Shown here piece by piece: positions 2,989 to 49,898 of a stretch of 64,000 nt of DNA. The stretch's first letter is position 1. Each line of letters opens with the position of its first letter. The notes under the pieces were generated by a model that ran no database searches, had not been told where the DNA came from, and saw only the letters and a program-made list of their open reading frames with translations. This DNA comes from Candidatus Moraniibacteriota bacterium (GTDB taxonomy: Bacteria > Patescibacteriota > Minisyncoccia > Moranbacterales > GWC2-37-73): assembly GCA_035390125.1 (NCBI GenBank), contig DAOOTD010000002.1, forward strand, positions 41,908 through 105,907, in the 5' to 3' direction. A program made the position numbers and the translations under genes.

Positions 2989-3015
2989 AATACTAGGAGA
3001 TGGCAATAATTTATT

Positions 3016-4670: not shown

Positions 4671-4680
4671 TCTTTGTCTC

Positions 4681-9265: not shown

Positions 9266-9673
9266 TTACTCTCCGGACTGAAAGGTTCTCTGGATAATAC
9301 TTAGATCAACTTTTGTAAGATCGGGATTGATGATATATAAAATCAGATAAGCTGACATGGCCGCCACAATGCCCAGCAGAGAATCAGCAATCAATTGCTT
9401 GGCGGTTTCAGCTCTGGCAGTGTTGCCTGCGCTGGTCATATACCAAAATCCGCCTATGGTTATCATAAAAAGTCCGGCGATGCCAACTGTCCAGATGCCG
9501 AATTTATAGATGGCTAGGATCAGATCCGGAAAATTATCCACAGTTTCGCCTGCAGCGTAAAAGCCAGGAATCCCTTGCAGTAGATTGTACTTCATTTCTA
9601 CACCATGAACTGCTCTGCCTAAAAATAAAGAGGATAGAAAACTTATTGCTATAATTATTTTTTTTCTTTTCAT
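9266..9673 (-). CDS. VirB2/TrbC-like two-helix pilin-like protein (paralog lacking the peptidase domain)
   Basis: Over 90 percent identical to the N-terminal 110 aa of the 8316-9218 product. Has its own signal peptide. Confidence 0.55.
   Translation of the reverse strand: MKRKKIIIAISFLSSLFLGRAVHGVEMKYNLLQGIPGFYAAGETVDNFPDLILAIYKFGIWTVGIAGLFMITIGGFWYMTSAGNTARAETAKQLIADSLLGIVAAMSAYLILYIINPDLTKVDLSIIQRTFQSGE
9343..9533. repeat. 190-bp identical direct repeat, copy 2
   Basis: Identical to 8889-9078. Flanks diverge immediately outside. Confidence 0.9.
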
Positions 9674-9745: not shown

Positions 9746-12700
9746 TTATTCTTTTTTTTCAAAAATTGATTCTGGCATTAAAGAAAATATTATCCCCATC
9801 GAGAACACCAGAACGATTGAAGTTACTGTTATTCTTAGCAAAAACAACATCTGCTCTGGCAGGTTTGTTATGAGGCTCGCAAAAATACCTGCTTTTTGGG
9901 GACTTTTCATAAACGTTATAGGGTCTTTTGTCACTTCTATAACAAACTCCTGATTAACATAGATGTCTTTATTTGAACTTAGAGGAGAGATGCCCCACTT
10001 ATCTTTAAGCTCTTTGCGCAAAGCATTGAGACCCTCCCTCTCCGCTCTTTCTAGTTTTGCTGTTCTGACTTTATATCCCACCAAATAGCTGTCCTTAGCT
10101 TCTTTTTTAACTGTAAATTCGAATGTGGAAGAATCTCCTGTAGAGGAAATTGTAATATCACCATCATCATTTCCATATGAAGCATCTCCATCTAATACCT
10201 GGACTCCATCAAGATACCATTCAAAAACTGCTTTTTGCCCAAAACTGTTTCCTGCAGTAGCTGTTAAAGAAACCCTCGTGTCTTCTTTAGCTTCCATAAC
10301 TGTATTACTAAAAGAGTCAACTTCATTGTTGTCTACGGTGTAGTATGTGCCCATAAATTTTCTCATAGCTCCTGAGGCACTGGATATCTGAGCATAGGAT
10401 CCGACAATAACAAATCTTTGGGTAATTTCTTGCCTGACGCCATTTTGGTTTGTTCCCCTAGCAACAACATTCACGGATTCTCCCGGATTACCTATAATAG
10501 GAAAGATTAGACCATTAAAACCCTGGCAGAGAGTTGAAAGACATTCCATTGATTGGCCGTTAACTTTCCAGGAATAGCCGCTTCCTCCATCTACCTCGAC
10601 CGCCACTAATTTGTTTTGTGTCACGGGACAAATTGCTTCTCCTTGTCCATTACATATTTGACTTCCTATACTAATCCCTGATGCGGAATAGCTTATCTCT
10701 CTTACTTTTATTGTTTCCGTTTGATTTCTAACCTTAACGATAACCTGCCCTTGGCTTGATTGGCCAGAGTTATTGTCCGTGGTTTTTACTGTAATCCTTA
10801 GATAAAATATGTCGCCCTCTATATCTAATGTGAGCGGGAAGCTTATTTTGCTTTTACCTAAACCGCTTAAAGATCCTATTTTCACGTCCTGTCCGCCCGT
10901 GCTTGATTCAGTTGGCGGAGAAGTAAATGCCTCCACTTTCCACTCATAATAAATGTCTTTCAAATCACCCGAGTTTTTTGACATAGCCTGAACCGTCAGG
11001 GTGTCGCTGTTTAAACCCTCTGGGTCATTCAGGGGATTTGTAGGCGTGGCAGAAAGTTTTGTTTCAAAAGCATATGAGACTCCGCCGGTTGCATCACTGC
11101 TAAGCGGATCCACTAAGTTTTCTTCTAGGCATCTATCTAAATCAAAATCTGTAGTCAATATTCCTTTATTGTTTTCAGGGTCTTTATAAAAAGCTGTCGT
11201 TGCTGTTCCATTAGTTCCTCCGTCTGTCATTTCTTTCCCCACTATGTCCTTTAATTCATCACACTTGCCTTTTGAAAATGCCCACATAATCATATTCTTT
11301 GAATCATTGTGTGGTCCCGCTAGTTGGCTTTCGCCCTCAACAACCACCCCGATTTCATCGCCATCAGTATATGTCCAATTAAATTTTTTAGCTCCCAATC
11401 CAATTACAGTAGCTTCATCTGCTTTTCCTTTAAAATTTTCTCCAAAATAAAAATTTTTTTCATTAGTTTTAAATTGGCCATCCCCGGGCTTAAAATTTTC
11501 GTCCGGATCATAAGGAAATAGGTGTTTGCATAAATTATCTTCCTCCCCCAACGCCGGTCCAAAGGAACAACTTGGTTCAAGATCTGGATTTCCTGTTACC
11601 TCAGAATTAGAATCTTCTACAAACACCCCGCTAATGGTTCCGTCTGACTTTACTCCATTTATCAGGCCCTGCGTCAGATAAGAACAATTTTCATGTTCTG
11701 AACTATAGAGCACTTCATCTAAAATTCCTGGTGGAGGTGCAAGTAGACCAATGTTAGTGTTGGGCTTTCCCAATGAAGAACAAAACGCGCCTTCACTTCT
11801 AACTATAGTCGCTCTAATATTATCAGGCGCAGTTTTATTGTTATCTATCATATTAAAATTCCCGCTTGCCGGCATGCATATCGGTGTTCCTCCATTTTTA
11901 CACGACAAATATGCATGAAACAGTTTATAGTCCTCACTTTTAGTTGTGCAATTAAATACCTGTTTCATTCCGGCTTCTCCAGTTGAGCTTGCAATACTTT
12001 TAACCATGCAGCCACTAAAATTCATGTCATTATGTTTCAGTTCCCAGCATGCATTTGCATCATAAAAAGGCGGTATAGTGTTGGGCGGACTTGTGTTTGT
12101 TGGGTCACAGACCGGCTCTGTTCCTGTAAATGCTGGGTCCAGCACCTCGCAGTTCATTGTTCGGTCTTCTACGCAAGCTGGCACCGGATAGTCATCTGGG
12201 CATGGGGTCTTGAAAATTGGTTCCGTTTTTCTTAATTCATAAATAAGTCCGCTTACTGGTTCCTGTACATAGCAATTTTCTGCTTCATACTTATTGCCGC
12301 TTTCTCTTTTCCAGGTTTTAATCCATCCATCATCATCTTCGACTGAGGGCACCGCCTCTATTCCAGCTTCCGCGGAGGTGTCTCCCTCGGCACTATTTTG
12401 GCCGGCATATCTTAGGGCGGCTAACTTCCAATCGTTAGGCGTTATGACATTATCGTTATCCAAATCACACGAGTCTCCATCGGCTCCTCCGTCCTTATCC
12501 CACCACTCGTCTGTTAAATCACAGTCTTTATTCTTTAAATACCATGTATAATAAAGATTATCACCACTAAATCCTGCCACCACTGCTTCGGCAGTTGCGG
12601 AAGCTCCAGTTTGAGGAACACCTCCTGGGAACATGACTCTTATTTCTACCTTGGGACCCTCTTTTTTGCCTTCAGCGGTTTGTTGCGCTATGGTAATCTC

Positions 12701-12832
12701 ATCTTCATCTTCCTGACTTAAGTCGGAAGAGACAGAAGCTGCTTGCAAATATACTGGAGCAGGAAATGTTTGTAAAAAAAGCATACATAAAATAGTTGCC
12801 AGATAAACTAATTTTTTATTTTTTTTACGCAT
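9746..12832 (-). CDS. giant (1028 aa) Cys-rich secreted surface protein with C-terminal TM anchor
   Basis: N-terminal signal peptide (MRKKNKKLVYLATILCMLFLQTFPAPVYLQAA) and a C-terminal hydrophobic anchor. Many paired Cys and Gly/Asp/Thr-rich segments. First gene of a co-directional cluster with the pilin-like genes. Confidence 0.6.
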   Translation of the reverse strand: MRKKNKKLVYLATILCMLFLQTFPAPVYLQAASVSSDLSQEDEDEITIAQQTAEGKKEGPKVEIRVMFPGGVPQTGASATAEAVVAGFSGDNLYYTWYLKNKDCDLTDEWWDKDGGADGDSCDLDNDNVITPNDWKLAALRYAGQNSAEGDTSAEAGIEAVPSVEDDDGWIKTWKRESGNKYEAENCYVQEPVSGLIYELRKTEPIFKTPCPDDYPVPACVEDRTMNCEVLDPAFTGTEPVCDPTNTSPPNTIPPFYDANACWELKHNDMNFSGCMVKSIASSTGEAGMKQVFNCTTKSEDYKLFHAYLSCKNGGTPICMPASGNFNMIDNNKTAPDNIRATIVRSEGAFCSSLGKPNTNIGLLAPPPGILDEVLYSSEHENCSYLTQGLINGVKSDGTISGVFVEDSNSEVTGNPDLEPSCSFGPALGEEDNLCKHLFPYDPDENFKPGDGQFKTNEKNFYFGENFKGKADEATVIGLGAKKFNWTYTDGDEIGVVVEGESQLAGPHNDSKNMIMWAFSKGKCDELKDIVGKEMTDGGTNGTATTAFYKDPENNKGILTTDFDLDRCLEENLVDPLSSDATGGVSYAFETKLSATPTNPLNDPEGLNSDTLTVQAMSKNSGDLKDIYYEWKVEAFTSPPTESSTGGQDVKIGSLSGLGKSKISFPLTLDIEGDIFYLRITVKTTDNNSGQSSQGQVIVKVRNQTETIKVREISYSASGISIGSQICNGQGEAICPVTQNKLVAVEVDGGSGYSWKVNGQSMECLSTLCQGFNGLIFPIIGNPGESVNVVARGTNQNGVRQEITQRFVIVGSYAQISSASGAMRKFMGTYYTVDNNEVDSFSNTVMEAKEDTRVSLTATAGNSFGQKAVFEWYLDGVQVLDGDASYGNDDGDITISSTGDSSTFEFTVKKEAKDSYLVGYKVRTAKLERAEREGLNALRKELKDKWGISPLSSNKDIYVNQEFVIEVTKDPITFMKSPQKAGIFASLITNLPEQMLFLLRITVTSIVLVFSMGIIFSLMPESIFEKKE

Positions 12833-23967: not shown

Positions 23968-24322
23968 ATAATATCTTATTTATACAAAATTAGTATATCA
24001 CGCTGGAGACTTTTTGTCGAGAGTTTTTAGGCAAAAAAACACTCATTTAAAAGCAAAAAAAATAACTATAAAATAATTTCTGAGCTATAATTGATTTATA
24101 AAAGCATAAAACAACAATTGACCCGGCAATACAAAAACAGTGCTGGGCTTGTCAAATTAATAAATATACTATATACTTATCCTGCAGTTAATTATTAAGA
24201 AAATTAAATAGCGAAATGCTTCAATTTCGCAATAAAGATTTCTTTTTAATTTCCTGAAGGGAAATTTTTTTGTGCCTTTTAATTATTAAGGCAGGTTGGG
24301 CACACCTGATAATACTAAAAAT

Positions 24323-31389: not shown

Positions 31390-32373
31390 TTAATTAGCAC
31401 TTATTTCTTTATAGTATGATTGAAAATCATTTTTAAAAAAATCAGCAAATAGGTCTAAATAGGCAGTTGCTTTGTTTGCAATGACTAGCTTTCCCATTGG
31501 GTCGTTTGAACTCAAAGAATAGTCTTTTAATGTCAAAACGCCCTTGATAAGCCTTAAAAATTTTACATGTAAATCAACCATGGTCTCTGGAACCTGGACA
31601 CTACTGACTTGATTTGAAAACGCTTCTAATCTATTACCAAGATCAGAAAAATAGGAGATATTTTCTTTTGAATTTCCAACATCAGCTACCTTTGAAAGGA
31701 AATCTTCTTGAAATGCAGTAAAATCATCTTTTGTTAAAATTTGAACAGGAAGATTATTGGCCATTAGATATAATACCTGATTCAAATATCTTGCGGAGTC
31801 TTCAGCTTCTCTCTTTTTCCTGTCTGCATCACTGAGTGATGAATAATTTTGTTTCAGTATGTTGAGTTGTGTTTCATCAACAAAAGGTAACGTATCCCAA
31901 GTTATAGAATCTCCCATATTTTTAGCAATTTGTTCATCGGCAAAATTGCGCAAATCGGTTACTGAAACATTCTGGCCTTCTTTCGAGGAAACAAATGCAC
32001 TTAAGTTTTGCAAATATTCATCTGTGAGTGTTGAACTGTTGCTAACTGAAGATGTGCTTTTTGAAGAAGCATCAGAAGTCTTTATTCCAGTTTCAATTTT
32101 ATCTCCCGGGGCCGGCTTAAGAGGATCATATCCGCTTTGGACTTCAATGCCATCCGAATAGCTATCATTATCGGTGTCATTTTTGTTAATGTCTGTTCCG
32201 TATAAATTTTCTTCTGTGTTTGTAAGTCCGTCACAATCAGAATCAATATTTTTATCACAAGAATTTGAGTCTGAATCAATATTTTCTGCATATGTAAAAT
32301 AATTGAAACTTGCAAAAAAAATACAAACCATGATTAGGAATAATTTTTTAAGAGTGTTTATTTTTATATACAT
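31390..32373 (-). CDS. hypothetical secreted protein with Asp-rich (TSP3-like) calcium-binding-type repeats
   Basis: Signal peptide, then DSDCDGLTNTEEN...DTDNDSYSDGIE repeats. Confidence 0.5.
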   Translation of the reverse strand: MYIKINTLKKLFLIMVCIFFASFNYFTYAENIDSDSNSCDKNIDSDCDGLTNTEENLYGTDINKNDTDNDSYSDGIEVQSGYDPLKPAPGDKIETGIKTSDASSKSTSSVSNSSTLTDEYLQNLSAFVSSKEGQNVSVTDLRNFADEQIAKNMGDSITWDTLPFVDETQLNILKQNYSSLSDADRKKREAEDSARYLNQVLYLMANNLPVQILTKDDFTAFQEDFLSKVADVGNSKENISYFSDLGNRLEAFSNQVSSVQVPETMVDLHVKFLRLIKGVLTLKDYSLSSNDPMGKLVIANKATAYLDLFADFFKNDFQSYYKEISAN

Positions 32374-32651
32374 AACATTTATTATTTTATGTCGTAATTA
32401 TACTATTATTTTTAAAAGCAGTAAAGTATCCTATTTAAAAAATTTAATATATTTCAAAAATATGTTTTTAGGATAAAAATAAAAACGTAATGCACAATTA
32501 ATACACCACGCGTGAAATCTATAATAAATAAAAAATTTATATTTTTTATTATCAGAATTAAATAATTTTAATTTTTAAAAAACATACTAAACAATTAAAA
32601 AAAGAGTACAGCCATTTTTATATTAAGACATAATATATTTATATTGTCAAG

Positions 32652-34265
32652 TTAAATAAAGCTCTTCTTGTTACTTAAAATAAATCCAAATATAAGCCAC
32701 AACAGTATTTGCCCCTGTTGGATATCCCAAAAGTAATGATCGAAAAGCATTATAAAAAGAAATGAAACAAGTACCGCCCTAAAATGATAATTTTCTAAGG
32801 TATTTATTTGTATATTTTTTTCAATAGACTCATTATTTTTAAAGTTACTTAAATTGTTCCACGTGGAACAAATGTCAATTTTTTCACCGAATAGCTTAAA
32901 CAAAAAGATTAAAAAAAGAAAAAGCATCAATATACCAAAATCATTTAATAAAAGCAAAAAAACATTATGGACGGGCTGAAATTGCCATATTTGTACATCT
33001 TTTATTTTTTCTATGTAAGCAATAAATTGTCCACTACCTAATCCTAGAATTGGGTTTAGAGCAAAAATTTGGCTTGAAATACTTGTATAAAATCCTCTTT
33101 CTTGAAGGCTTTTATAAAATATTGAATTCAGATCTGTATTTAGTAGAAAAAATAGAAAGAAAAATATACATAAAATCAAGAAAAATTTTTTAATAAAGAC
33201 TATTTTATTAAAAAAAATGAAATTGTTCCACGTGGAACAATTTTTTTTACAGAGGTAAATAAAAGCTATTATAAGACCTAAGATTGCGGATTTTGAAAAT
33301 GTTAAAAAAATGGCTAAAAACTGAATTAATATAATGAAAAAAAATATAAATGTTTCACGTGGAACATTTATATTAAAAACATTAATAAATAACATTTTTT
33401 CAGGTGCTTTTTTAAGCCTTGAAAATTGTTCCACGCGGAACAATTTAAAATATAGTATAGATATGATTATAGAAAAAACTAAAAAACCTCCAAGTATATT
33501 TGGATGAGGAAAAAGACCGTAAGCTCTCAGGTATGTTGATCCATTTATGATAATTTTAGCGACTCCTGTTAATTGAGTTGAAATAATGCTTTCTTTCAGC
33601 CATATTAAACCTAGGGATTGTTGGCTTAAAATCTGAATTATTCCGATAATTGATTGTAATATACCTATTCCTATAATTATCTTAAAAATTATTCTAAGCC
33701 TATATAAATGTTCCACGTGGAACATTTTGCTTATATAAATAAAAAGTAGAACAAATTCGAGAATTTTTAATGATCTAAATAGAGCAATTTGGTGACTTTC
33801 TGACCATAGGATAGATATAAAAGAAAAAATAACTAAAAATAAAGGAAAAAATAATAGTAAGTTGTGATTAAATTGTTGATAAAGGTTTTTTAAACATGAA
33901 AAAAGATTATTAAATGTTTTTTTATTTAATATTTTGTTGTAATTGTTCCACGTGGAACAATTTATTTTTAGAGTAGAAAAAGCTGTCAATATTGACAGAA
34001 TACTATTTTTATTGCATAATATTAAAAACCAAGTAAATAATGTCAGAAAAAGGAATATGTCAGACAAGTATATGTATACTCCCATATATTCATTAAATAC
34101 ACCTTTTACAGGATAATAGAAAAGCACTTTTCTTATGGATAATGTGCTTGTGGCAAGAAAAGCACAAAAAAACCAAAAATCTGGTTTTTTTCTAAAAGAG
34201 ATTAAAGTTTTTCTGATTAAATCAGTCATATTCTTATTATAATGTATTTTTAGCAAAAAAAACAT
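32652..34265 (-). CDS. Wzy_C/O-antigen-ligase-like polytopic membrane protein carrying six in-frame palindrome insertions
   Basis: 537-aa ORF open in AT-rich DNA with many TM helices and a Wzy_C-like segment (FPHPNILGGFLVFSI). Palindrome copies translate as CSTWNN (three times), NVPRETF, LFRVEQF and MFHVEHL. Confidence 0.55.
   Translation of the reverse strand: MFFLLKIHYNKNMTDLIRKTLISFRKKPDFWFFCAFLATSTLSIRKVLFYYPVKGVFNEYMGVYIYLSDIFLFLTLFTWFLILCNKNSILSILTAFSTLKINCSTWNNYNKILNKKTFNNLFSCLKNLYQQFNHNLLLFFPLFLVIFSFISILWSESHQIALFRSLKILEFVLLFIYISKMFHVEHLYRLRIIFKIIIGIGILQSIIGIIQILSQQSLGLIWLKESIISTQLTGVAKIIINGSTYLRAYGLFPHPNILGGFLVFSIIISILYFKLFRVEQFSRLKKAPEKMLFINVFNINVPRETFIFFFIILIQFLAIFLTFSKSAILGLIIAFIYLCKKNCSTWNNFIFFNKIVFIKKFFLILCIFFFLFFLLNTDLNSIFYKSLQERGFYTSISSQIFALNPILGLGSGQFIAYIEKIKDVQIWQFQPVHNVFLLLLNDFGILMLFLFLIFLFKLFGEKIDICSTWNNLSNFKNNESIEKNIQINTLENYHFRAVLVSFLFIMLFDHYFWDIQQGQILLWLIFGFILSNKKSFI
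32854..33960. repeat. array of six copies of an 18-22 bp perfect palindrome (AA)TTGTTCCACGTGGAACAA(TT)
   Basis: Copies at 32854, 33223, 33351 (variant), 33427 (CACGCG variant), 33709 and 33943. All lie inside one ORF and occupy three different reading frames. Confidence 0.9.
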
Positions 34266-40856: not shown

Positions 40857-40937
40857 GGGGATATGGTGGAATTGGTATACACACACGTTTGAGGGGCGTG
40901 ACCGAAAGGTGTGAGGGTTCGAGTCCCTCTATCCCCA
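40857..40937 (+). tRNA. tRNA-Leu (anticodon GAG), type II
   Basis: Acceptor ggggata/tatcccc, same D-arm as the other Leu genes, anticodon loop ttGAGgg, T-arm gagggttcgagtccctc. Confidence 0.85.
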
Positions 40938-40946
40938 CGTGTTCAA

Positions 40947-41025
40947 AAGGATGTTTAGCTCAGTTGGCTAGAGCACTTCTCTTACAAAGAAGGGGTCACT
41001 GGTTCGAGTCCAGTAACATCCACCA
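40947..41025 (+). tRNA. tRNA-Val (anticodon UAC), CCA encoded
   Basis: Acceptor ggatgtt/aacatcc + a + cca. Anticodon stem-loop cttct-ctTACaa-agaag. Confidence 0.85.
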
Positions 41026-41040
41026 TGCAAAAAAGATAGA

Positions 41041-41113
41041 GCCGAAATAGCTCAGCGGTAGAGCGAAGGACTGAAAATCCTTGCGTCGGCAGTTCAACTC
41101 TGCCTTTCGGCAC
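41041..41113 (+). tRNA. tRNA-Phe (anticodon GAA)
   Basis: Anticodon stem-loop aagga-ctGAAaa-tcctt. T-arm ggcagttcaactctgcc. Confidence 0.85.
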
Positions 41114-41141
41114 ATTTTAAAAATCAAAGATTGAGCTAAGA

Positions 41142-41213
41142 GGGACCATAGCTCAGCGGTAGAGCAGGCGACTCATAATCGCTTGGTCATAGGTTCGAAT
41201 CCTATTGGTCCCA
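41142..41213 (+). tRNA. tRNA-Met (anticodon CAU)
   Basis: Anticodon stem-loop ggcga-ctCATaa-tcgct. Initiator versus elongator not resolved. Confidence 0.8.
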
Positions 41214-41228
41214 CAAGAATTTAAAAAT

Positions 41229-41300
41229 GCGGGTATCGTATAGTGGCTATTATACGTCCTTGCCAAGGATGAGACGGCAGTTCGATTCTGCTTACCCGCT
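41229..41300 (+). tRNA. tRNA-Gly (anticodon GCC)
   Basis: Anticodon stem-loop cgtcc-ttGCCaa-ggatg. The 3' end overlaps the stop of the recombinase gene. Confidence 0.85.
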
Positions 41301-42899
41301 CAGAAGTTCAAAAACGGCCTTAGATTGGGCTGTTTTTGTTTTATCTAAGGCAAAATTAGTCAGTTCTAACCTTGGACATTCTGCCTTTATGGTTTCCAAT
41401 CCTTTTTCAATGAGTTGGTATTGTTTTCTTAGTGTGATATCTAGCACGCCATCCTTGAGGGTGAAATCTGATCCCAAAGCCCGTAAAATGTTGGTTTTCT
41501 CGGTATAATCACCAACATTAAAATTATGTTTTGCATATACCGCAAACTTGAATGTTTTTTCGGTCAGTTCTAACCATTCATCGGCTCGCTGGTTTATGTC
41601 ATCTAAAGATTGTTGAATCTTGTCTTTTTCTTTCAGTAGGGTCGCTTTTCTTTCCTTGAATTCGTCATCGCCAATTAAATCCTTGTTGGCATTTTCGGGT
41701 GAGATGTAGATATCTAACAACTTATCAATCCTATCTTGGCATTTCTTCAATGCTTTTTGTTGGTTTTCAATCATTATGTTCCTATTATCAACTTCGAGTT
41801 CGTTATCTCGCCTTAAGATTTTCAAAGCATAATCCAAAAAACTTTTAGGTATAGTGATTTTATCCAACTTATCTGCAATCTGCTTGTTGATGTCGTTGTA
41901 GGTAATGGATTTTTGTTTGCAATTAACATTCAACTTCTTTCTAGTGCAGTTATGATAGATGAATGTTCGGACAACATTTTCGGTTTTTATATGCTTCAGT
42001 TTTAGTTGGGTAGTAATATGACATCCGCACTCACCGCAACGGATAGTTCCTCGATAGGGAAGAATTTTATGTTTTGTTTGTGGCTTAGTTTTATTTCCCA
42101 AAAGTCCTTGAACATAATCAAATTCAGCTTCGGTTATCATCGGTGTGTGATTTCCTTCATAAACCTTACCAGTCCATTCATATTTTCCACAATAAAAAGG
42201 ATTGGTAAAAATATCGTATCCATGGCTAGCGTGCAGTTTTATTTCTTGCCCCTTGCACATTCTTCGCAAACCCCATTCATTGTTGGCAATCTCGATAATT
42301 TTTGAAACAGAATAGTCGCCAGTTAACATCAAGTCCCACATCTTACGAACAATGGGGAATTTTACTTCATCTACAAAAATCTGTTTTTTACCTTGGTCTG
42401 TTCCTTTGTCATTTTTATATCCTATCGGTGCACGACCAGGTCTCCAGCCTTGCTCTGCCTTATTCAACAGTCCTCGTCGGACATCTTTTCCTAAATCAAT
42501 AACATATTGGTTCGCCATTCCAAATTCAACACTCATCATTATCACATTGTCTACGGTTTTGTATTCTCTGCCGACTGTTTGGATGGACTGGATGAGTCCT
42601 TGTTGAAGCAACCACATTATCTCACCACCATCAACGGGATTTCTTGCTAGACGATTTAACTTCCAGCATATAATTCCATCTGCCTTGCCTTGTTTAATAG
42701 CAGACAGCATTTTGTTGAATTGTTCCCGACCTGGCTTTTTCGCTGATTTGCTCTCTTGAAAAACACCGACAATTTTAACATCGAGATGGCGTGCTAATTT
42801 TTCCAGTTCTTTTTTCTGGCTTTCAATAGATTGCGTTTGACGATCTTCCGCTTCGGTACTTTTGCGAAGATACATCAGATATTTTTGTTTTGTTTCCAT
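41292..42899 (-). CDS. large serine recombinase (phage-integrase type)
   Basis: N-terminal resolvase catalytic domain (YLRKSTEAEDRQTQSIESQ with the nucleophilic Ser), recombinase domain, zinc-ribbon CGECGCH...C and a C-terminal coiled-coil. The stop overlaps the tRNA-Gly 3' end. Confidence 0.85.
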   Translation of the reverse strand: METKQKYLMYLRKSTEAEDRQTQSIESQKKELEKLARHLDVKIVGVFQESKSAKKPGREQFNKMLSAIKQGKADGIICWKLNRLARNPVDGGEIMWLLQQGLIQSIQTVGREYKTVDNVIMMSVEFGMANQYVIDLGKDVRRGLLNKAEQGWRPGRAPIGYKNDKGTDQGKKQIFVDEVKFPIVRKMWDLMLTGDYSVSKIIEIANNEWGLRRMCKGQEIKLHASHGYDIFTNPFYCGKYEWTGKVYEGNHTPMITEAEFDYVQGLLGNKTKPQTKHKILPYRGTIRCGECGCHITTQLKLKHIKTENVVRTFIYHNCTRKKLNVNCKQKSITYNDINKQIADKLDKITIPKSFLDYALKILRRDNELEVDNRNIMIENQQKALKKCQDRIDKLLDIYISPENANKDLIGDDEFKERKATLLKEKDKIQQSLDDINQRADEWLELTEKTFKFAVYAKHNFNVGDYTEKTNILRALGSDFTLKDGVLDITLRKQYQLIEKGLETIKAECPRLELTNFALDKTKTAQSKAVFELLSG

Positions 42900-42932
42900 A
42901 TTAGTGTGTACAGAATTTATGCCACGGATTGA

Positions 42933-43115
42933 TTATATTATGTTCTCTCTTCTTGTACATGGCTCAGAGTCGACCTTTCTGAGAGGTTTATATATATGTC
43001 TAATCATTTCAACCAAAGTTTCCGCACATTCCAAAGACTCCTCGGATGACAGTTTTTGTCCGAATTCTTTTTCATAAAGTGCTTGAAATTTTTTTGCGTC
43101 AGCCTTGGTTATCAT
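42933..43115 (-). CDS. small acidic protein upstream of the integrase (candidate directionality factor / regulator)
   Basis: 60 aa, co-directional and 33 nt from the integrase start. Palindromic operator-like sites lie upstream. Confidence 0.35.
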   Translation of the reverse strand: MITKADAKKFQALYEKEFGQKLSSEESLECAETLVEMIRHIYKPLRKVDSEPCTRRENII

Positions 43116-43221
43116 TTTAATTTAATAAAATAAGATAGATGAATAGGATATTTATAGATTTAGGATATGTATAGTTCCTCTTATTTAGAGGTATATATAG
43201 ACTAAAGTAAAAATTATAGTA

Positions 43222-43263
43222 TTTACTATAGTAAGGAGGAGAATTATCCTTACTATAGTAAGG
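43222..43263. promoter_or_regulatory. two tandem copies of the palindrome CCTTACTATAGTAAGG
   Basis: ttactatagtaagg-aggagaattat-ccttactatagtaagg, in the 150-bp gap upstream of the integrase operon. Confidence 0.5.
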
Positions 43264-43266
43264 TTA

Positions 43267-43575
43267 TTATTCTTCAACGATTTCAATACTGGCATAGTCA
43301 TAAGCGTCTAAAATAAATTTTCTGATTTTATTCCAAATCGCTTTTTCAAAAAGACAGAATTTGAATCCAGCTTTCTGTGGCATCGTGACATTTAATCCCT
43401 CAAACTTGCTTTTCCAAACACCAAAGCCAGTGACCGTAAAGTATTCTCCAGTTTCAAACTTGAAACTCACATTGGCGTTGGCAAGCAAGTTCTCGTGCTT
43501 TCCTTTAATCATGTTTATTTTTATCGACACTTCTTTAAGATGTAGGTCGAGCGGGTAGGTGGTAAATGGTTTCAT
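43267..43575 (-). CDS. hypothetical protein
   Basis: 102-aa ORF with no recognisable motif. Confidence 0.4.
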   Translation of the reverse strand: MKPFTTYPLDLHLKEVSIKINMIKGKHENLLANANVSFKFETGEYFTVTGFGVWKSKFEGLNVTMPQKAGFKFCLFEKAIWNKIRKFILDAYDYASIEIVEE

Positions 43576-43592
43576 AATTTTCGGTAATTTTG

Positions 43593-43808
43593 TTAAGATG
43601 GTTCAGTTTTATTTTTTTGTTTAGATTTTTCTGCCATTATTCTGTCGACAGACTCATTAAAATAACTCAACATATCAGAGGCAACTTTCCAAAAATCGTC
43701 ATCGTTAAAATTTGCATTAGGTATTAGTTTCATGTACTTTACAACAAATTCATCAAGGTCAGCCCATAAGTTTTCTTCAATTGACAGTTCTTCATTGATT
43801 GATTCCAT
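43593..43808 (-). CDS. hypothetical acidic small protein
   Basis: 71 aa. Tightly spaced with the 43267-43575 gene. Confidence 0.35.
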   Translation of the reverse strand: MESINEELSIEENLWADLDEFVVKYMKLIPNANFNDDDFWKVASDMLSYFNESVDRIMAEKSKQKNKTEPS

Positions 43809-44043
43809 AAAATTAAAATTTAATAATTAGACACACACCCCGATTTTTCAGTGGGAGAACGACATTTTGGGGAATTTTTCATAAAATATTCTTTAAATTA
43901 TTTTTTATTTTTTCATTATATTTAACCCACTATTTGATAAAGAATTAGTGGGTTGCTAGTGGTTTAAAAAAACAAAAAAAGACTTTTAATAAAGTCTTTT
44001 GATACAACTAAAGAAGTTTTAAGTTTAGGTATAAACCACTCTT

Positions 44044-44844
44044 TTACCTATAAGATAGCCATGCTTTATCGCTGTCAATTTTAAATTTAAATTTTTTATT
44101 AACATCATGTGCTGATAACAATCTCTGCAACTCTTTTATTGTTCCCTCAATTTTAAGTTTCTTGTAATTTTTTTTCAAATATTCATCAGCTTCATCCGAT
44201 GCATTTTTTTTGGTAAATCTCTTTATTTTTTCAAATAAATATTCCAAAGTTCGTGCTGTTCCAATAGGATTACAAAAAGATTTTAATAATTGATACTTGG
44301 CTGTTTCAGCGTTACCAACTTCAATATTTTTCTTATCAACCTTTAAATAACCGATCCCATTTTTTTCAAATGTGGCAACTTTTATTTTACTTGTTTTTTC
44401 CTTCAATTTTTCAATTTTATTGTTTCCTATTCGATAACTGGAATATTCTAATATTTTATTCAAGCTTTCTTTGAATTTACCAGCCTCGTTTTTATTTGCC
44501 TTAAACAATAATGGATGCGTGGATTTACAAATAATGTTAAATAGTATTTTCTTGTTTTTCTTGCATGAATAATAAAGCAATATATTATGAAGTAGTTTTT
44601 GTCTTGAGTTGAAATAATTTGTCTTTAAAGATTCAGCCATATAATTGAGTGTAGATATATGGCCATATAAATCTTTTTTTACACCGCATTCATTTAAAAA
44701 ATCGCCCATTTTTATGTGAGATTTTAAACTTTCTATGGCATTTATTTTTTTAGCAATAAGTTCCAATGACTGCTCATTTAATATACAGCCTTCTTTTTTA
44801 AGGGAGCTTACTGTTATTGCTAATTCAATTTCATTTTTAAACAT
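44044..44844 (-). CDS. hypothetical protein (Lys-rich)
   Basis: 266-aa ORF with no recognisable domain. Confidence 0.45.
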   Translation of the reverse strand: MFKNEIELAITVSSLKKEGCILNEQSLELIAKKINAIESLKSHIKMGDFLNECGVKKDLYGHISTLNYMAESLKTNYFNSRQKLLHNILLYYSCKKNKKILFNIICKSTHPLLFKANKNEAGKFKESLNKILEYSSYRIGNNKIEKLKEKTSKIKVATFEKNGIGYLKVDKKNIEVGNAETAKYQLLKSFCNPIGTARTLEYLFEKIKRFTKKNASDEADEYLKKNYKKLKIEGTIKELQRLLSAHDVNKKFKFKIDSDKAWLSYR

Positions 44845-44924
44845 ATATTTATTATTGATATTTTCTCACTAGATAGGCTTAAAAGCAAGATAAATGTTTA
44901 CTTTTAGCCATTTTTATATTACAT

Positions 44925-45078
44925 TGTAAGTGGTACCATACTCATATAGACACTGAGAGTAATCTCAGTAATTTTGCTTCATCACGCCTTTAAGCGGGCG
45001 GCTCGGCGCACATGATGGGGCATTTCGGTGTCTTTTGAGTGTGGTACCCGTCGGGTCGTCCACTCAAGCGGAACTTCT
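44925..45078 (+). ncRNA. GC-rich structured element; candidate ncRNA or cis-acting site
   Basis: A 13-bp long-range helix (GGTACCATACTCA at 44928 pairs with TGAGTGTGGTACC at 45035) encloses local hairpins. GC is about 50 percent versus about 28 percent around it. Ends at a strong terminator. Confidence 0.3.
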
Positions 45079-45112
45079 CGACGACTTAATTATTAAGTCG
45101 TTTTTTGTTTTT
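45079..45112 (+). terminator. rho-independent terminator
   Basis: acgacttaattattaagtcgt followed by T6. Confidence 0.75.
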
Positions 45113-45138
45113 AAAAAACAAATTACACAATAAAAAAT

Positions 45139-45489
45139 ATGGGTGTAATTGAATCAATCGGAGCTAACCGAGCAAGAATCATTTTCGATGATTTTTGTGT
45201 TAGATTATTTTTAAAATATAAAGGAAACTATTGCTCTGATGTTAGAATATGGAAATTATCAAAATCCAATATACTTTTTGGCATGTTTAATAGTAAAAAT
45301 TTATACTGGGCTGTTTGTGATGAGGCGGCCAATTCTTTACACGGTTGGTTTTATAAAGAAGGCGATCTACTTAAGTCATTGGCGCATAGAATAGAGCAAT
45401 GCTCTAATGAGAATGAACTGAAAAGATTGTGTCTTAATCTGGAAAATATAATTGAAAAAGGAATTCCATTAGATATAGGAGAATTTTAA
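45139..45489 (+). CDS. hypothetical protein
   Basis: 116-aa ORF, Cys-containing, no motif recognised. Confidence 0.45.
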   Translation: MGVIESIGANRARIIFDDFCVRLFLKYKGNYCSDVRIWKLSKSNILFGMFNSKNLYWAVCDEAANSLHGWFYKEGDLLKSLAHRIEQCSNENELKRLCLNLENIIEKGIPLDIGEF

Positions 45490-45490
45490 T

Positions 45491-45700
45491 ATGGAAAATA
45501 AAAAACATCGTCTCCAATCAAATTTCGAATTTATTGCTGAAACATCCTTGCGAGTAGTGCGAGCGTTTTCATATTTCTTTATGGTTGCGATACCCCTTTT
45601 GAATTATAAAGATCTGCGATTTTCAATTAAAACTATCTTGATTTGCTTGAGTTTGGTTTTTATTTCTAATAGACTACTTGGCAAAATTAGAAGCAAATAA
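45491..45700 (+). CDS. hypothetical small membrane protein
   Basis: 69 aa with one or two hydrophobic helices. Start is 2 nt after the previous stop. Confidence 0.35.
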   Translation: MENKKHRLQSNFEFIAETSLRVVRAFSYFFMVAIPLLNYKDLRFSIKTILICLSLVFISNRLLGKIRSK

Positions 45701-46130
45701 GGTTTTATCTAAAACGAATAATCGTGTTTGGTCGCGGATTCTAGCTATGCAAGATATAACAAAAAACGACCCTCTCTTTTTTGCGAAGGTCTTTTTTTAT
45801 TCCTCTTTTGTCACCAAAACACTCTCTTTTGGCTTTAAATAGCCAAAGATATAAAGTTATATGGCTGACCAGCCAAGACATCCTCTAGGGATGAAATAAA
45901 GCCTCCAGGGGCAGTGAGAGTGTCTCGCCAAATGGGCTTTTTGGCTAAAATAAGGCAAAGATTTCTTAATTAAACGATAAAAGGTTTTAAATAGCGGAAA
46001 TTATCGTGTTTGGTCGATTAATTTGTGTAGTATGATAACTGTTTAAAGAATTAATTATTATATAAGTTTATGGGTTAAAAAGCTATATATTGGCATAAGG
46101 CAATTTAAGTGATAAGCTAAAAATACAAAT

Positions 46131-47045
46131 ATGGCATTATTTAGCATACAAGGCGAGAAAACTAAAAAGATTTTATCTAAAAGCTTAGATTTAGAAAAAA
46201 AACTTCAAAAATTATTCGAGAATAATCTTGAAGACGTTTTGAATATCACTTTTTTAGCCCATGAATATTCCACAAGTTTTGGCGGAAGAATTGATACATT
46301 GGGAATAGATAAAAACGGATCTCCCGCAATAATAGAATATAAAAAGAACCAAAATGATAATGTAATTAATCAAGGACTCTCCTATTTGCGATGGCTTTTA
46401 GATCATAAGGCTGATTTTGAAATATTATGCAGAAATAATAAAGTTGCAGTTGAAATTGATTGGGATTCGCCAAGGGTTATCTGTATAGCAGAAAACTATA
46501 ATAAATTTGATATTGACACTGCGGATATTTTGCCTATAAATATTGAATTGCTAAGATATAGGATCTATGAAAACGATATTTTATCTCTAGACATAGAAAA
46601 TTATCAAAAAGTAAGAATTTCAACTTCTGGCATATTAAAGAAAGCAAGAAATCAAAAAGAGAAGCAGAATGTTCTTCAGAAAAATTATTTATTAGAAGAT
46701 CATCTGAAAAATGCGCAAAAGGAAATAAAATTACTTTTTTATAAGTTGCGAGAAAAGATCACAGCACTTGATGAAAATATTATTGAAGAGGCTAAGGCAA
46801 AGTATATCGCCTATAAAACTTCAACTAATTTTGTTGATATTGTGGTGCTTGGCAATAGTTTAAAAATATTTTTAAATGTGAAAAGTGGAAAACTTATTGA
46901 TAAAAATTCAATAGCCAGAGACTTAACTAAGCCAAAATCCGTTGGTCATTGGGGGAATGGTGATTATGAGGTAAAATTGCAAAGCGAAAATGATTTAGAA
47001 AAAGTTTTTGACCTAATAAAACAAAGTTATGGTTATAATAAATAA
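46131..47045 (+). CDS. PD-(D/E)xK nuclease-fold protein (NucS/DUF91-like core) with C-terminal extension
   Basis: GRIDTLGIDKNGSPAIIEYKKN...NVINQGLSYLRWL carries the D...D...ExK...Q..Y signature. Overlaps the downstream gene by 17 nt. Confidence 0.6.
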   Translation: MALFSIQGEKTKKILSKSLDLEKKLQKLFENNLEDVLNITFLAHEYSTSFGGRIDTLGIDKNGSPAIIEYKKNQNDNVINQGLSYLRWLLDHKADFEILCRNNKVAVEIDWDSPRVICIAENYNKFDIDTADILPINIELLRYRIYENDILSLDIENYQKVRISTSGILKKARNQKEKQNVLQKNYLLEDHLKNAQKEIKLLFYKLREKITALDENIIEEAKAKYIAYKTSTNFVDIVVLGNSLKIFLNVKSGKLIDKNSIARDLTKPKSVGHWGNGDYEVKLQSENDLEKVFDLIKQSYGYNK

Positions 47046-48348
47046 AACTATGTACCAAGTAAAAATACCTAAGATATTATTTTTAGCACTAGGGACAGCA
47101 AGATTTTATTATAAAGGTTATTATAATACAAATGATCTCGCTGGAATTGCAAATAAATATGCCGAACATCTCGTTCGTTTAAGATCAGACAAAAAAGATT
47201 ATAAGTATTTGGATGATACTAATTTTGGTGGATTAAGAGGAAATTTTTCAACACTTCTTACGTGGAAAGGGTTTGTTAAAAGGGGAAATGCCATAGTAAG
47301 TAGATATTATATTGGCAGGGATAAAAGATTGGCTAATGCAGTATGTAATGGTGAAATTATACTAAATGAGAGTAATATGACTGCGTATACTACAAATGAA
47401 AAATTAAAAGAACTTTTAGAATTAGAAGCATGGCTTTTCACCGTAAAGGAAACACAGGCACATATAAAAGTTATGTTAGGAAAAGATAAGAGCATACCTC
47501 TTTCTAGAGATAACGATAATTTCAAAAAAGTATCTGTCGTAAGGAGTGCAAATGGTCAATATTTTATAAGATCGTTAGTTAACAATTTTATTGATTCAAA
47601 AAATAAAGTTCTGGAGTACAGTATAGTTAATTTTTGGGAAGGAAAAAAGTTAAAGAAGAAAAATCTTCATCCATTAATAGTTATTCCTACGAAAGATACT
47701 CCTTGGAGTAAAATATTTGCAATAAAAATGGAAGATTTGATTGATAATAAACCTTTGACATTATTGGTTGATTTAGAAAAAGAAATTTGTTTTGATACGG
47801 ACAATAATAAATACAAGCTATATTCTCTAAGGGAAGCCGTTGACGAATTTACAACTGGAGATGAAAATATACCTCAAAGGCTTTCATATTCCTGGGAAAA
47901 AATAAAAGAGGCTCACTGTGATAAAGAAGCTGATTTTTCTGAAATCAAAGAAGATGAATTTATAATTTTTCTAGAGAAATTCCTCAAGTGGCAAAAAGAA
48001 TTTGAAGTTGGAGAAAAGAAAGTTGTGGGTGTAAATGTATCGAGCTCTGGTGGTCCCGATGTTCACTTAACATTTTCGGGTGGCACAGCCCAAAAATTAG
48101 AACTTGAACATAACTGGAAAAGCTACTTAGATCACAGGCATCACGAAAGTAATGCATGGGTAGATACATGGCTTTTTGCAGAAGAAGAATGGAATCCTAA
48201 AAGAATATTAAGTTTATACAAGACACATAGAAAAACCAATGGTCAAAGAATTCCTAATGTATTTTTATGTTTAGAAAGAGGAGAACGCAAGTGCTATGAA
48301 GCAAATTGGGATGAAGAAACATTTACAGAAATACCTTTAAAATTTTAG
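47029..48348 (+). CDS. hypothetical 439-aa protein, candidate second endonuclease subunit / specificity partner
   Basis: No family recognised. Possible D...ExK-like patch (PTKD...LLVDLEKE). Start overlaps the PD-(D/E)xK gene and the 3' end overlaps the convergent methyltransferase by 12 nt. Confidence 0.45.
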   Translation: MVIINKTMYQVKIPKILFLALGTARFYYKGYYNTNDLAGIANKYAEHLVRLRSDKKDYKYLDDTNFGGLRGNFSTLLTWKGFVKRGNAIVSRYYIGRDKRLANAVCNGEIILNESNMTAYTTNEKLKELLELEAWLFTVKETQAHIKVMLGKDKSIPLSRDNDNFKKVSVVRSANGQYFIRSLVNNFIDSKNKVLEYSIVNFWEGKKLKKKNLHPLIVIPTKDTPWSKIFAIKMEDLIDNKPLTLLVDLEKEICFDTDNNKYKLYSLREAVDEFTTGDENIPQRLSYSWEKIKEAHCDKEADFSEIKEDEFIIFLEKFLKWQKEFEVGEKKVVGVNVSSSGGPDVHLTFSGGTAQKLELEHNWKSYLDHRHHESNAWVDTWLFAEEEWNPKRILSLYKTHRKTNGQRIPNVFLCLERGERKCYEANWDEETFTEIPLKF

Positions 48349-49128
48349 TTTACTTAATTGATTTTTATTTTTTAACACAACTATTTTCGAGGTTGTGTTA
48401 TTTTTTTTCGCTCGATTTTTCATTATTTCAAAATATTCATTGTCATTCTCTATACTTATACTGTTCCTTTTTAATTGATCCGCTGAAGATTGAAGCGTTC
48501 CACTGCCGGCAAAACAATCTAAAACCCAGTCATTTTCATTAGTAAATATTTTTAGTAAGTGCTCTAAAACCTTGGCTGGTTTTTGAGTGGGATGTTTCGT
48601 TCTTTCATTGCCCATGCATATCGGAGTTTCTACAAAATCAGCCTTGATGTGATTATGCATTTCATTTTGCTTTGTAAAATTGAAAGTATAATCTATTTTT
48701 TTTTCATTAAATCCTTTCGTTGCCCATAAAATTGCCTCACATGAAGATAAAAAACCTGTTTTTCTAATTTGGGGGGCTGGATTAGTTTTGTGCCAAATAA
48801 TAGTAGCATGGTGTTTAAAATCATGCTTTTCATATATTCTTTTTATATCACTAATATATTCTAATTTGCTAAAAATTAACAAATTTCCAGATTCTTTAAC
48901 TTTATTTTTTGTATTCTTTATCCATTTATCAGTAAATAATAGATATTCATCATCAGAAAAATAATCCCACTTTCCAAAATCTGATGATCTAGCCTTTCTT
49001 CCTTTTAATATCTTGGTATTTTTATTAGCAGTATTGTAAGGAGGATCAACAATTACGGCATCGAATTTTTTATTGATTTTTGGCAAAATATCCAAAGCAT
49101 CTCCGAATATTAAATAATGTGAATTCAT
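48337..49128 (-). CDS. DNA methyltransferase, beta-class amino-MTase (N6A or N4C)
   Basis: Motif IV DPPY (AVIVDPPYNT) precedes motif I FxGxG (LDCFAGSGTL). Confidence 0.85.
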   Translation of the reverse strand: MNSHYLIFGDALDILPKINKKFDAVIVDPPYNTANKNTKILKGRKARSSDFGKWDYFSDDEYLLFTDKWIKNTKNKVKESGNLLIFSKLEYISDIKRIYEKHDFKHHATIIWHKTNPAPQIRKTGFLSSCEAILWATKGFNEKKIDYTFNFTKQNEMHNHIKADFVETPICMGNERTKHPTQKPAKVLEHLLKIFTNENDWVLDCFAGSGTLQSSADQLKRNSISIENDNEYFEIMKNRAKKNNTTSKIVVLKNKNQLSKLKF

Positions 49129-49133
49129 AAAGT

Positions 49134-49898
49134 TTATTTTTTTAGTCGTTTAAGTGAATCAATATAATAACCCTTGTCAACTTCAGAACCTATAAAATTT
49201 CTTTTTAATCTTTTCGCCACAACCGCAGTAGTCCCTGAACCCATAAAAGGATCGAATATAATATCATTTTCATTTGAAGTTGCTAGTATTATTTTCTCTA
49301 AAAGCCATTCTGGTTTTTGTGTAGGATGTATTTTTTTTCCTCCCGCAGTTTTTCCTCTTGTCAAAACAGCTTCTCCATACCACATGCACCTCATTTGCTT
49401 TCCGTGATTAATCTTTTTCATCTCACCATAATTAAATGTATTTTTTTTAGTTTTTCTTGCCCATATGAAATTTTCATGATCAGCTACAAATCTCGTACAA
49501 GACAAATTTGGTGTAGCATCAGATTTGTGCCATATTATTTCATTTAAAGGCTCAAGCCCTATTTTTTTTAATAAGTATCCTGTTAAATAAATATTATGAT
49601 AAGTTCCTGCAACCCATATTGCTCCTTCATTTTTTAATATTCTATAACATTCTTGTAGCCATTTCTTTGTAAATTCTTCGAATTCAATATCTCCAAAATT
49701 ATCCCAATGCCCTTTATTTGTGCTTAAATCAGAACCGCCAGATTTTATGAATTTTATCTTAAAATTGCTTTTGCTTAGGTTATAGGGAGGATCTGCAAAT
49801 ATCAAGTCAATAGAGTTGCTTTTAATTTTTTTCATTAATTTTAAGCAATCTTCATTGTAGATTTTATTTATTTTCAGTTTTTTATCTGTAAAAATCAT
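49134..49898 (-). CDS. DNA methyltransferase, beta-class amino-MTase (N6A or N4C), second copy
   Basis: IFADPPYNL then FDPFMGSGTTAVVA. Lies 5 nt upstream of the other MTase. Confidence 0.85.
   Translation of the reverse strand: MIFTDKKLKINKIYNEDCLKLMKKIKSNSIDLIFADPPYNLSKSNFKIKFIKSGGSDLSTNKGHWDNFGDIEFEEFTKKWLQECYRILKNEGAIWVAGTYHNIYLTGYLLKKIGLEPLNEIIWHKSDATPNLSCTRFVADHENFIWARKTKKNTFNYGEMKKINHGKQMRCMWYGEAVLTRGKTAGGKKIHPTQKPEWLLEKIILATSNENDIIFDPFMGSGTTAVVAKRLKRNFIGSEVDKGYYIDSLKRLKK

Follow-up and report, generated by a model that had tools for sequence, protein, structure and literature searches.

A single gene in the 64,000-nt stretch of DNA analyzed here, hereafter the window (Candidatus Moraniibacteriota bacterium, assembly GCA_035390125.1, contig DAOOTD010000002.1, positions 41,908 to 105,907 of the forward strand), contains six copies of a short palindrome that very probably make up an array of parS sites for loading of the partition protein ParB, that is, a centromere located close to the replication origin and embedded in the coding sequence of a membrane protein. 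The observations behind this interpretation are the identity and the number of the sites, their confinement to one gene, the constraint that acts on them at the DNA level, their placement in the loops of the encoded protein, their conservation throughout the clade and their proximity to the origin. By analogy with the characterized partition systems, the lineage would be expected to possess a ParB that binds these sites and recruits SMC and ParA.

An array of parS-type sites in a membrane-protein gene

A search of the window with the 18-mer TTGTTCCACGTGGAACAA, allowing up to three mismatches, yields exactly six matches, which start at 32854, 33223, 33350, 33426, 33708 and 33943, compared with a chance expectation of 0.02 matches; none of 100 dinucleotide-preserving shuffles reaches six. 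The successive sites are 369, 127, 76, 282 and 235 bp apart, and the high-identity similarity among the copies ends at ∼22–26 bp. An earlier note on this DNA described six copies of one perfect palindrome, spaced by 76–369 bp, which occupy three reading frames of a 537-amino acid Wzy_C-like gene and occur nowhere else in the 64 kb. The number, positions, spacing, frames and confinement of the sites hold, as do the peptides given in that note (CSTWNN three times, MFHVEH, LFRVEQ and NVPRET), but the copies are not all perfect: only three of the six (32854, 33223 and 33943) are exact 18-mers, the copy at 33708 is a separate perfect palindrome, ATGTTCCACGTGGAACAT, and the copies at 33350 (ATGTTTCACGTGGAACAT) and 33426 (TTGTTCCACGCGGAACAA) are imperfect palindromes, with an internal change in each. 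The persistence of the open reading frame (ORF) in AT-rich DNA, which the note considered unusual, needs no special explanation because the palindrome contains no stop codon in any frame.

At the 16-bp level, measured against the palindrome tGTTNCACGTGNAACa that defines chromosomal parS, four sites are exact copies of TGTTCCACGTGGAACA, one is TGTTTCACGTGGAACA and one, TGTTCCACGCGGAACA, has a single mismatch; with the 16-mer TGTTYCACGTGRAACA as the reference, one site retains a single mismatch and the other five match fully. Neither the window nor 82.5 kb of its contig contains a further match to TGTTYCACGTGRAACA with up to two mismatches. Avoidance or enrichment of CACGTG as a restriction site was considered and rejected, given that two of the seven CACGTG hexamers in the window lie outside the sites, with 2.4 expected.

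Judged by its sequence, the palindrome is canonical chromosomal parS, the ParB centromere site, which gives substance to the alternative suggested in the earlier note, in which a dimeric DNA-binding protein recognizes arrayed sites inside a coding region. Guanine at position 2 and adenine at position 7, with their symmetric partners, distinguish parS from Noc binding sites (NBS), and the parS-type specificity bases are present in the sites of the relatives analyzed below (G2 in 542 of 542, A7 in 541 of 542, T10 in 542 of 542 and C15 in 542 of 542). Furthermore, TGTTCCACGTGGAACA is, verbatim, the sequence of parS2 and parS3 of Pseudomonas aeruginosa (PMC4368675, Table 1). As a control, contigs from public metagenomes were scanned for pairs of exact 16-mers 10–40 nt apart; in 24 of the 80 loci listed, a ParB homolog is encoded on the same, often short, contig (E values from 1e-8 to 1e-70, 21 of these below 1e-40), and most of these loci are rich in GC and bear no relation to this organism. 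A Wzy-type locus appears once among the 80 listed (L152), and in the ten other low-GC control loci, the sites lie mostly outside long ORFs.

The host gene is assigned to the Wzy_C/O-antigen ligase family by its Pfam match (PF04932, 38.5 bits compared with the cut-off of 31.7, residues 311–452), and with ∼10 hydrophobic segments, its product is predicted to be a polytopic membrane protein. Its 661 homologs are named as O-antigen ligase family proteins of Moranbacteria or Parcubacteria, and homologs of the host and neighboring proteins bear the names Candidatus Moranbacteria or Parcubacteria group. Among 18 sequences at 45–59% identity (two near-identical ones excluded), 74 columns are invariant, and the conserved blocks include LTFSKSA, YGLFPHPN, WQFQPVHNVFLL and FDHYFWDIQQGQ; such a strongly conserved core indicates that the host is a working gene rather than a decayed scaffold. 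The AlphaFold2 model of the protein is poor, with a mean predicted local distance difference test score (pLDDT) of 53, and was used just to place low-confidence loops; all six site-encoded peptides map between hydrophobic segments, in or bordering low-confidence segments of the model, so that all six sites are predicted to fall in inter-helix loops. The region 32001–34000 has the lowest G+C content of the window (0.25 compared with ∼0.33 overall) despite the six GC-rich sites. The two Wzy_C paralogs in the window (4681–5934 and 5918–7135) contain no parS site at up to two mismatches of TGTTYCACGTGRAACA.

Table 1. Coordinates of the host gene, the putative parS sites and the origin-side features (positions in the window; negative values lie upstream of position 1)
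Feature	Position	Strand	Basis or reading
Host gene, predicted 537-amino acid polytopic membrane protein, O-antigen ligase/Wzy_C family	32652..34265	-	ORF and Pfam
Putative parS site 1, TGTTCCACGTGGAACA exact	33944..33959	.	CSTWNN, residues 103-108; low-pLDDT segment 86-136
Putative parS site 2, TGTTCCACGTGGAACA exact; flanks give ATG...CAT	33709..33724	.	MFHVEH, residues 181-186
Putative parS site 3, TGTTCCACGCGGAACA, one mismatch in central CGTG	33427..33442	.	LFRVEQ, residues 275-280
Putative parS site 4, TGTTTCACGTGGAACA, hybrid of two canonical half-sites	33351..33366	.	NVPRET, residues 300-305
Putative parS site 5, TGTTCCACGTGGAACA exact	33224..33239	.	CSTWNN, residues 343-348; low-pLDDT segment 342-357
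Putative parS site 6, TGTTCCACGTGGAACA exact	32855..32870	.	CSTWNN, residues 466-471; low-pLDDT segment 460-488
dnaA	-1981..-578	other strand than rnpA	dnaN beyond
Divergent intergenic region, MBL-fold gene (-)/rpsA (+); candidate origin-side landmark	23968..24295	.	GC-skew minimum and strand switch

Conservation across relatives and constraint on the DNA

The distribution of the sites in relatives is far from that of a dispersed repeat. In 80 loci from GTDB species-representative genomes, fetched via alignment of the host protein and almost all labelled Moranbacteria, Moraniibacteriota or Parcubacteria, 621 parS-like sites (at most one mismatch to TGTTYCACGTGRAACA) are located in the orthologous gene (132 kb), compared with four in 1.14 Mb of flanking DNA; abundance of the palindrome at background frequency, which the earlier note named as a ground for refutation, is not what is seen in this DNA. 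At least one site is present in 79 of the 80 orthologous genes, with a median of 7 and a maximum of 18, and the smallest spacing among the relatives is 29–49 bp; the sole site-free gene, of 408 amino acids, comes from a Curtissbacteria genome. Two of the four flank sites are the edges of the host gene itself, and the other two represent one orthologous weak site. The latter (L021:3161 and L029:2323) is a one-mismatch site in a ∼210-amino acid protein of two species, read as NVSRETF or NVPRETF, and its two occurrences are the only genuinely extragenic parS-like sites in the flanks. A further ∼130 kb, taken from elsewhere in Moranbacteria genomes, contains zero parS-like sites.

In the relative with 88% identity (L210), all six sites are found at identical positions; site 3 is exact there and is read LFHVEQ, and site 4 is exact TGTTCCACGTGGAACA. 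One site is slightly degraded in this relative and two are in the window, and such mild decay of a few sites is to be expected from the redundancy among them. Genes of the host type are found also on contigs of metagenome-assembled genomes (MAGs) labelled Bdellovibrionales, Ignavibacteriaceae, Methanosarcinales and Brevundimonas (L007, L011, L016, L020, L064, L073 and others), bins that are probably mislabelled or contaminated. In five of 81 loci (L024, L030, L071, L079 and L080), the host gene consists of two overlapping frames, which may represent real frameshifts or pseudogenes or else result from assembly errors at the palindromes.

The use of reading frames and codons makes it clear that selection acts on the parS DNA and not on the encoded peptides. 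The three frames account for 129, 175 and 238, respectively, of the 542 sites analyzed, which come from 76 uninterrupted genes. When 63 full-length orthologs are aligned as proteins, six hotspots, located between conserved blocks, take up all of the mapped sites except one. Each of these hotspots is occupied in 30–58 of the 63 species, with frames mixed in five of the six; for example, in the hotspot that is read MFHVEH in the window (site 2), the commonest reading in the other species is NVPRGT, in frame 2. When the peptides are taken as the starting point, the exact parS nucleotides underlie 116 of 121 instances of CSTWN, 176 of 178 instances of VPRGT and 147 of 157 instances of FHVE, for a total of 439 of 456, compared with 0.15–0.6% predicted from local codon usage, an expectation that is low because TCC, ACG, CGT, GTG and CAC are minority codons here. 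It is the combination of three frames with exact parS nucleotides in spite of rare codons that points to the DNA as the target of selection, and orthologs with the same peptides encoded without the palindrome, a possibility that the earlier note had left standing, are accordingly not the pattern observed.

The opposite interpretation, under which CSTWN, VPRGT and FHVEQ are functional protein motifs and the palindrome is a by-product, has one observation in its favor: at one hotspot, which is read as YLNVSRGTF and lies within an otherwise conserved block, 29 of 30 species use one and the same frame. However, three unrelated peptides are produced from three frames of one DNA word in the same loops, and synonymous codons are essentially never used, the exact DNA being retained in 439 of 456 cases against the expectation of <1%. 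The codon test and the use of three frames refute a protein sequence repeat, and the chance that the peptides are what is conserved is practically negligible.

The sequence logo of the 542 sites agrees with that expected of parS. In 14 of the 16 core positions, at most 18 of the 542 sites vary, and the only variable positions are 5 (C or T) and 12 (G or A), which together represent the two classical parS variants. This variation reflects species-level preference, given that covariation between positions 5 and 12 is lost on within-species shuffling. The 5′ flank is rich in A and the 3′ flank in T, with A at -1 in 88% of the sites and T at +18 in 82%, and a preference for the same bases is seen at parS of unrelated GC-rich bacteria (60% and 51%, respectively). 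Beyond 3–4 bp on either side of the 16-mer, the information content drops to the background.

How the sites came to occupy the loops can be gleaned, in part, from protein length, which increases with the number of sites by ∼10 amino acids per site (r = 0.61, p = 1e-7), an indication that the loops have grown to hold the sites; site-free relatives and paralogs consist of 405–417 amino acids compared with 537 in the window. The earlier note proposed that the palindromes were in-frame insertions reminiscent of the Rickettsia palindromic elements (RPEs), and of this proposal, the weaker form stands, with the added ∼10 amino acids per site, whereas the mobility does not. A short mobile element, similar to RPEs, repetitive extragenic palindromes or miniature inverted-repeat transposable elements (MITEs), that has multiplied inside the host gene by in-frame insertion could account for the variation in copy number between species, from 0 to 18, for the dependence of protein length on copy number, and for the perfectly palindromic unit of 22–24 bp, which may be copied whole. 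Nevertheless, such an element is extremely unlikely: the conserved stretch is just ∼22 bp, the flanks contain no copies other than the one orthologous weak site, the array resides in one gene in 79 of the 80 species with the same six loops occupied clade-wide and the six positions identical in the 88%-identical relative, and no association with transposases was seen. RPE-like and MITE-like elements, for which a conserved element of ∼100 bp or more and dispersal through the genome are expected, were rejected on both counts, with zero sites outside the gene in the 82.5 kb of contig.

Position near the origin and the search for parB

Directly upstream of window position 1 lies rnpA, followed by dnaA and dnaN on the other strand. 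The cumulative GC skew reaches its minimum at ∼23–24 kb, where gene orientation switches as well (junction 23967/24296). The array is located 33–36 kb from dnaA and ∼9–10 kb from the GC-skew minimum and thus is origin-proximal, with dnaA/dnaN, the skew minimum and the strand switch taken as proxies for oriC. The proxies themselves do not coincide, dnaA–dnaN being ∼25 kb away from the skew minimum and strand switch, and clusters of DnaA boxes are found near -500 and near 13.5–14 kb. JGI contig Ga0209507_1000038 is 100% identical to the window over the 11-kb overlap examined. The surroundings of the host gene are conserved in most relatives: gyrA, the gene for a metallo-β-lactamase (MBL)-fold protein, rpsA, tilS, ftsH and the gene for the CCA-adding enzyme are found within 10 kb of it in 33–49 of the 80 loci, and the gyrA-MBL/rpsA-gmk-tilS-ftsH block recurs beside it in relatives. 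In another species (JBAXDL010000001.1), the distance from yidC to the host gene is again ∼35 kb.

Several observations weigh against an origin-proximal ParB-loading array. To begin with, no parB was found in the window (Pfam scans of 51 ORFs), in the 10-kb extensions beyond both of its ends, in the 80 species up to 10 kb from the host gene (phmmer search of all ORFs with Spo0J, which covered the extended contig as well), around DUF4446/infB in other Moranbacteria or around dnaA/yidC in three other species. In 1.54 Mb from 94 loci, a ParB profile hidden Markov model derived from 22 sequences likewise gives no hit at E < 0.1. The Spo0J query is a valid detector that recognized the ParB homologs in the 24 unrelated loci. 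Thus, parB is not linked to the array, unlike in the usual arrangement of parS and parB. The 1.54 Mb, however, represent three origin-side regions, amounting in most species to ∼18 kb per genome, and random placement would put ∼1.5 parB genes there by chance; with so little of each genome sampled, the failure to see parB is uninformative about its absence from the lineage. Further, in the comparison of the window with L210, mismatches occur at 3 of 96 positions within the sites and at 110 of 1518 positions in the rest of the gene (p = 0.08), a difference for which the test has low power. Finally, the arms of the palindrome covary beyond the 16-mer, at positions 0/+17, which is not predicted if the two half-sites are read independently by a dimer.

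DUF4446 often adjoins parB in Firmicutes. In Moranbacteria, the DUF4446 gene is highly conserved (63–100% identity; L082:3985-4488, corresponding to approximately +68.4 to +68.9 kb of the window, and L086–L089), and its neighborhood consists of a methyltransferase gene, a tRNA gene, DUF4446 and infB, with no parB nearby.

The lack of linkage to parB raises the possibility that some other dimeric DNA-binding protein reads the sites, either a regulator or silencer of the host gene or a novel centromere-binding protein that replaces ParB. This is distinctly unlikely. Apart from the lack of parB in the 1.54 Mb of Moranbacteria DNA, which, at ∼18 kb per genome in most species, carries little weight, the confinement of the sites to one gene is what would be expected of operators. 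By contrast, all 16 bases are those of canonical parS, the variable positions 5 and 12 and the flank preference are the same as in parS of unrelated bacteria, and a regulator with up to 18 operators scattered over a coding region would have no precedent.

The covariation of the arms is the point at which a role of nucleic acid structure has to be weighed. Complementarity at positions 0/+17, -1/+18, -2/+19 and -3/+20 exceeds that in within-species shuffles (z = 9.5, 3.2, 5.2 and 3.1, respectively); in particular, 0/+17 is A..T or T..A in 398 of the 542 sites compared with 320 predicted by the shuffles. Palindromy as such, therefore, reaches 22–24 bp. Moreover, each site in the window folds into an mRNA hairpin of 7–11 bp, with an energy of -7 to -11 kcal/mol (z of approximately -4 in five of the six sites and -2.2 in the sixth). 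Hairpins in the mRNA, which could act in translation pausing during membrane insertion or in mRNA stability, or else cruciforms in the DNA, might be what selection maintains. However, most of the core is near-invariant over the 542 sites, without compensatory changes, the sole covariation within the core (5/12) disappears on within-species shuffling, a constraint on structure alone would not fix the exact canonical parS, and no Rfam family matches the region, so that no known RNA family is involved. Correction of quasipalindromes by template switching is a known mutational process, and such correction could equally yield the flank covariation, which possibly results from this process, from copying of the whole unit when a site is gained or from selection for hairpins. 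Overall, a structural role as the primary function of the sites is highly unlikely.

Other parts of the window deserve mention. The two Wzy_C paralogs belong to a polysaccharide cluster (1573–7135) that directly follows yidC-jag and includes, in addition, a flippase-like Polysacc_synt gene and two GT2 glycosyltransferases; this cluster is kept in three other Moranbacteria. A 1028-amino acid ORF (9746–12832) without a Pfam match is located in the most GC-rich part of the window (0.40) and is accompanied by two ORFs weakly resembling pilins of type IV secretion systems (8316–9218 and 9266–9673), a layout that is also kept in other Moranbacteria. A gene for a large serine recombinase (41292–42899) abuts a cluster of six tRNA genes (40857–41301) and is followed downstream by ORFs without a family match, a DUF5655 protein and two N6/N4 DNA methyltransferases (48337–49898), so that the region 41292–49898 looks like an integrated mobile element or a restriction-modification island. 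The palindromes were considered as recombination sites for this recombinase, an option that was rejected given that the sites are kept in species with other neighborhoods.

Proposed function and relation to known systems

Under the established ParABS model, ParB dimers would bind each of the 16-bp sites, and CTP-bound ParB would close into clamps that slide onto the adjacent DNA. The resulting partition complex would then recruit the SMC condensin and, if present, ParA, and would thereby organize and separate the newly replicated origin regions. With respect to the coding function, the 16-mer, being stop-free in all frames, can be read as CSTWN, VPRGT or FHVE(Q/H), and the sites have built up in six inter-helix loops that tolerate changes in length, such that the protein core remains under purifying selection and the loops carry 1–18 DNA sites. 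A conservative account of this housing would combine three factors: a streamlined genome with little intergenic DNA, a stop-free site, and long, unconstrained loops that would tolerate hexapeptide insertions.

A bolder version of the centromere interpretation holds that the Moranbacteria centromere moved into, and has been coevolving with, a polytopic membrane-protein gene that is not linked to parB, and that the choice of the host is possibly functional. Transertion, that is, co-transcriptional translation and membrane insertion, would tether the ParB–parS complex, and with it the origin region, to the membrane, and such tethering could replace polar anchors, perhaps along with ParA, which may be missing from these tiny cells. 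In the most radical variant, the lineage may have no canonical ParB, with the sites read by a new protein. This bolder version is rather unlikely.

The likeness to the known chromosomal parS systems, such as the Spo0J sites of Bacillus subtilis and parS1–10 of P. aeruginosa, extends to the 16-bp palindrome, the multiple copies, the location near the origin and the tolerance of sites within coding sequences. The parS inside the B. subtilis spo0J gene is read as NVPRET, the same peptide as that of site 4. The differences lie in the arrangement. The known parS genomes contain 1–25 sites spread over tens to hundreds of kilobases, across many genes and intergenic regions, usually beside parAB, whereas here every detected site (six in the window and up to 18 in relatives) is within 1.1–2 kb of one ORF, and this ORF hosts the array across a candidate phylum, with parB not nearby.

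Dense clusters of parS are known from Myxococcus xanthus (22–24 sites), Caulobacter crescentus (7) and Corynebacterium glutamicum (10). These are similar to the array described here in that many close sites represent a single centromere region near oriC, but they surround parAB over ∼10–35 kb and extend beyond any single frame-constrained gene, and the spacing here is as small as 29–49 bp. For M. xanthus, 22 parS sites near the origin are reported (PMC3899335).

With RPEs, the array shares palindromic DNA inside unbroken ORFs that adds segments to the encoded peptides. RPEs are selfish repeats of 100–150 bp that are dispersed through many unrelated genes and intergenic regions, whereas the element in question is, judging by its sequence, a protein-binding site of 16–22 bp that is restricted to a single gene and conserved at orthologous loops. 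The repeat arrays of plasmid centromeres, namely, F sopC, P1 parS and the RK2 OB sites, are non-coding, plasmid-borne and of other sequences. As in the present case, clustered sites for a partition protein form one strong centromere in these plasmids, but the array in the window is chromosomal and doubles as a coding sequence.

The parS site itself, then, is known, but a three-frame array within one ORF with parB unlinked appears to be undescribed in the searchable literature, in which no paper was found that links parS or ParB to Patescibacteria (the candidate phyla radiation, CPR, Parcubacteria or Saccharibacteria) or mentions these peptide motifs. If the interpretation of the array as a centromere is correct, it would provide the first concrete handle on chromosome segregation in a major group of uncultured, ultra-small bacteria. 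It would also represent an unusually clean natural case of overlapping codes, in which an array of protein-binding DNA sites and a coding sequence have made use of the same nucleotides through a long stretch of evolution, with the DNA code winning in the loops, as well as a natural system for the study of how sliding ParB clamps coexist with transcription and translation of the DNA on which they are loaded. Additionally, annotated proteins that contain CSTWN, VPRGT or FHVEQ would provide a cheap marker of parS sites hidden in the coding regions of MAGs.

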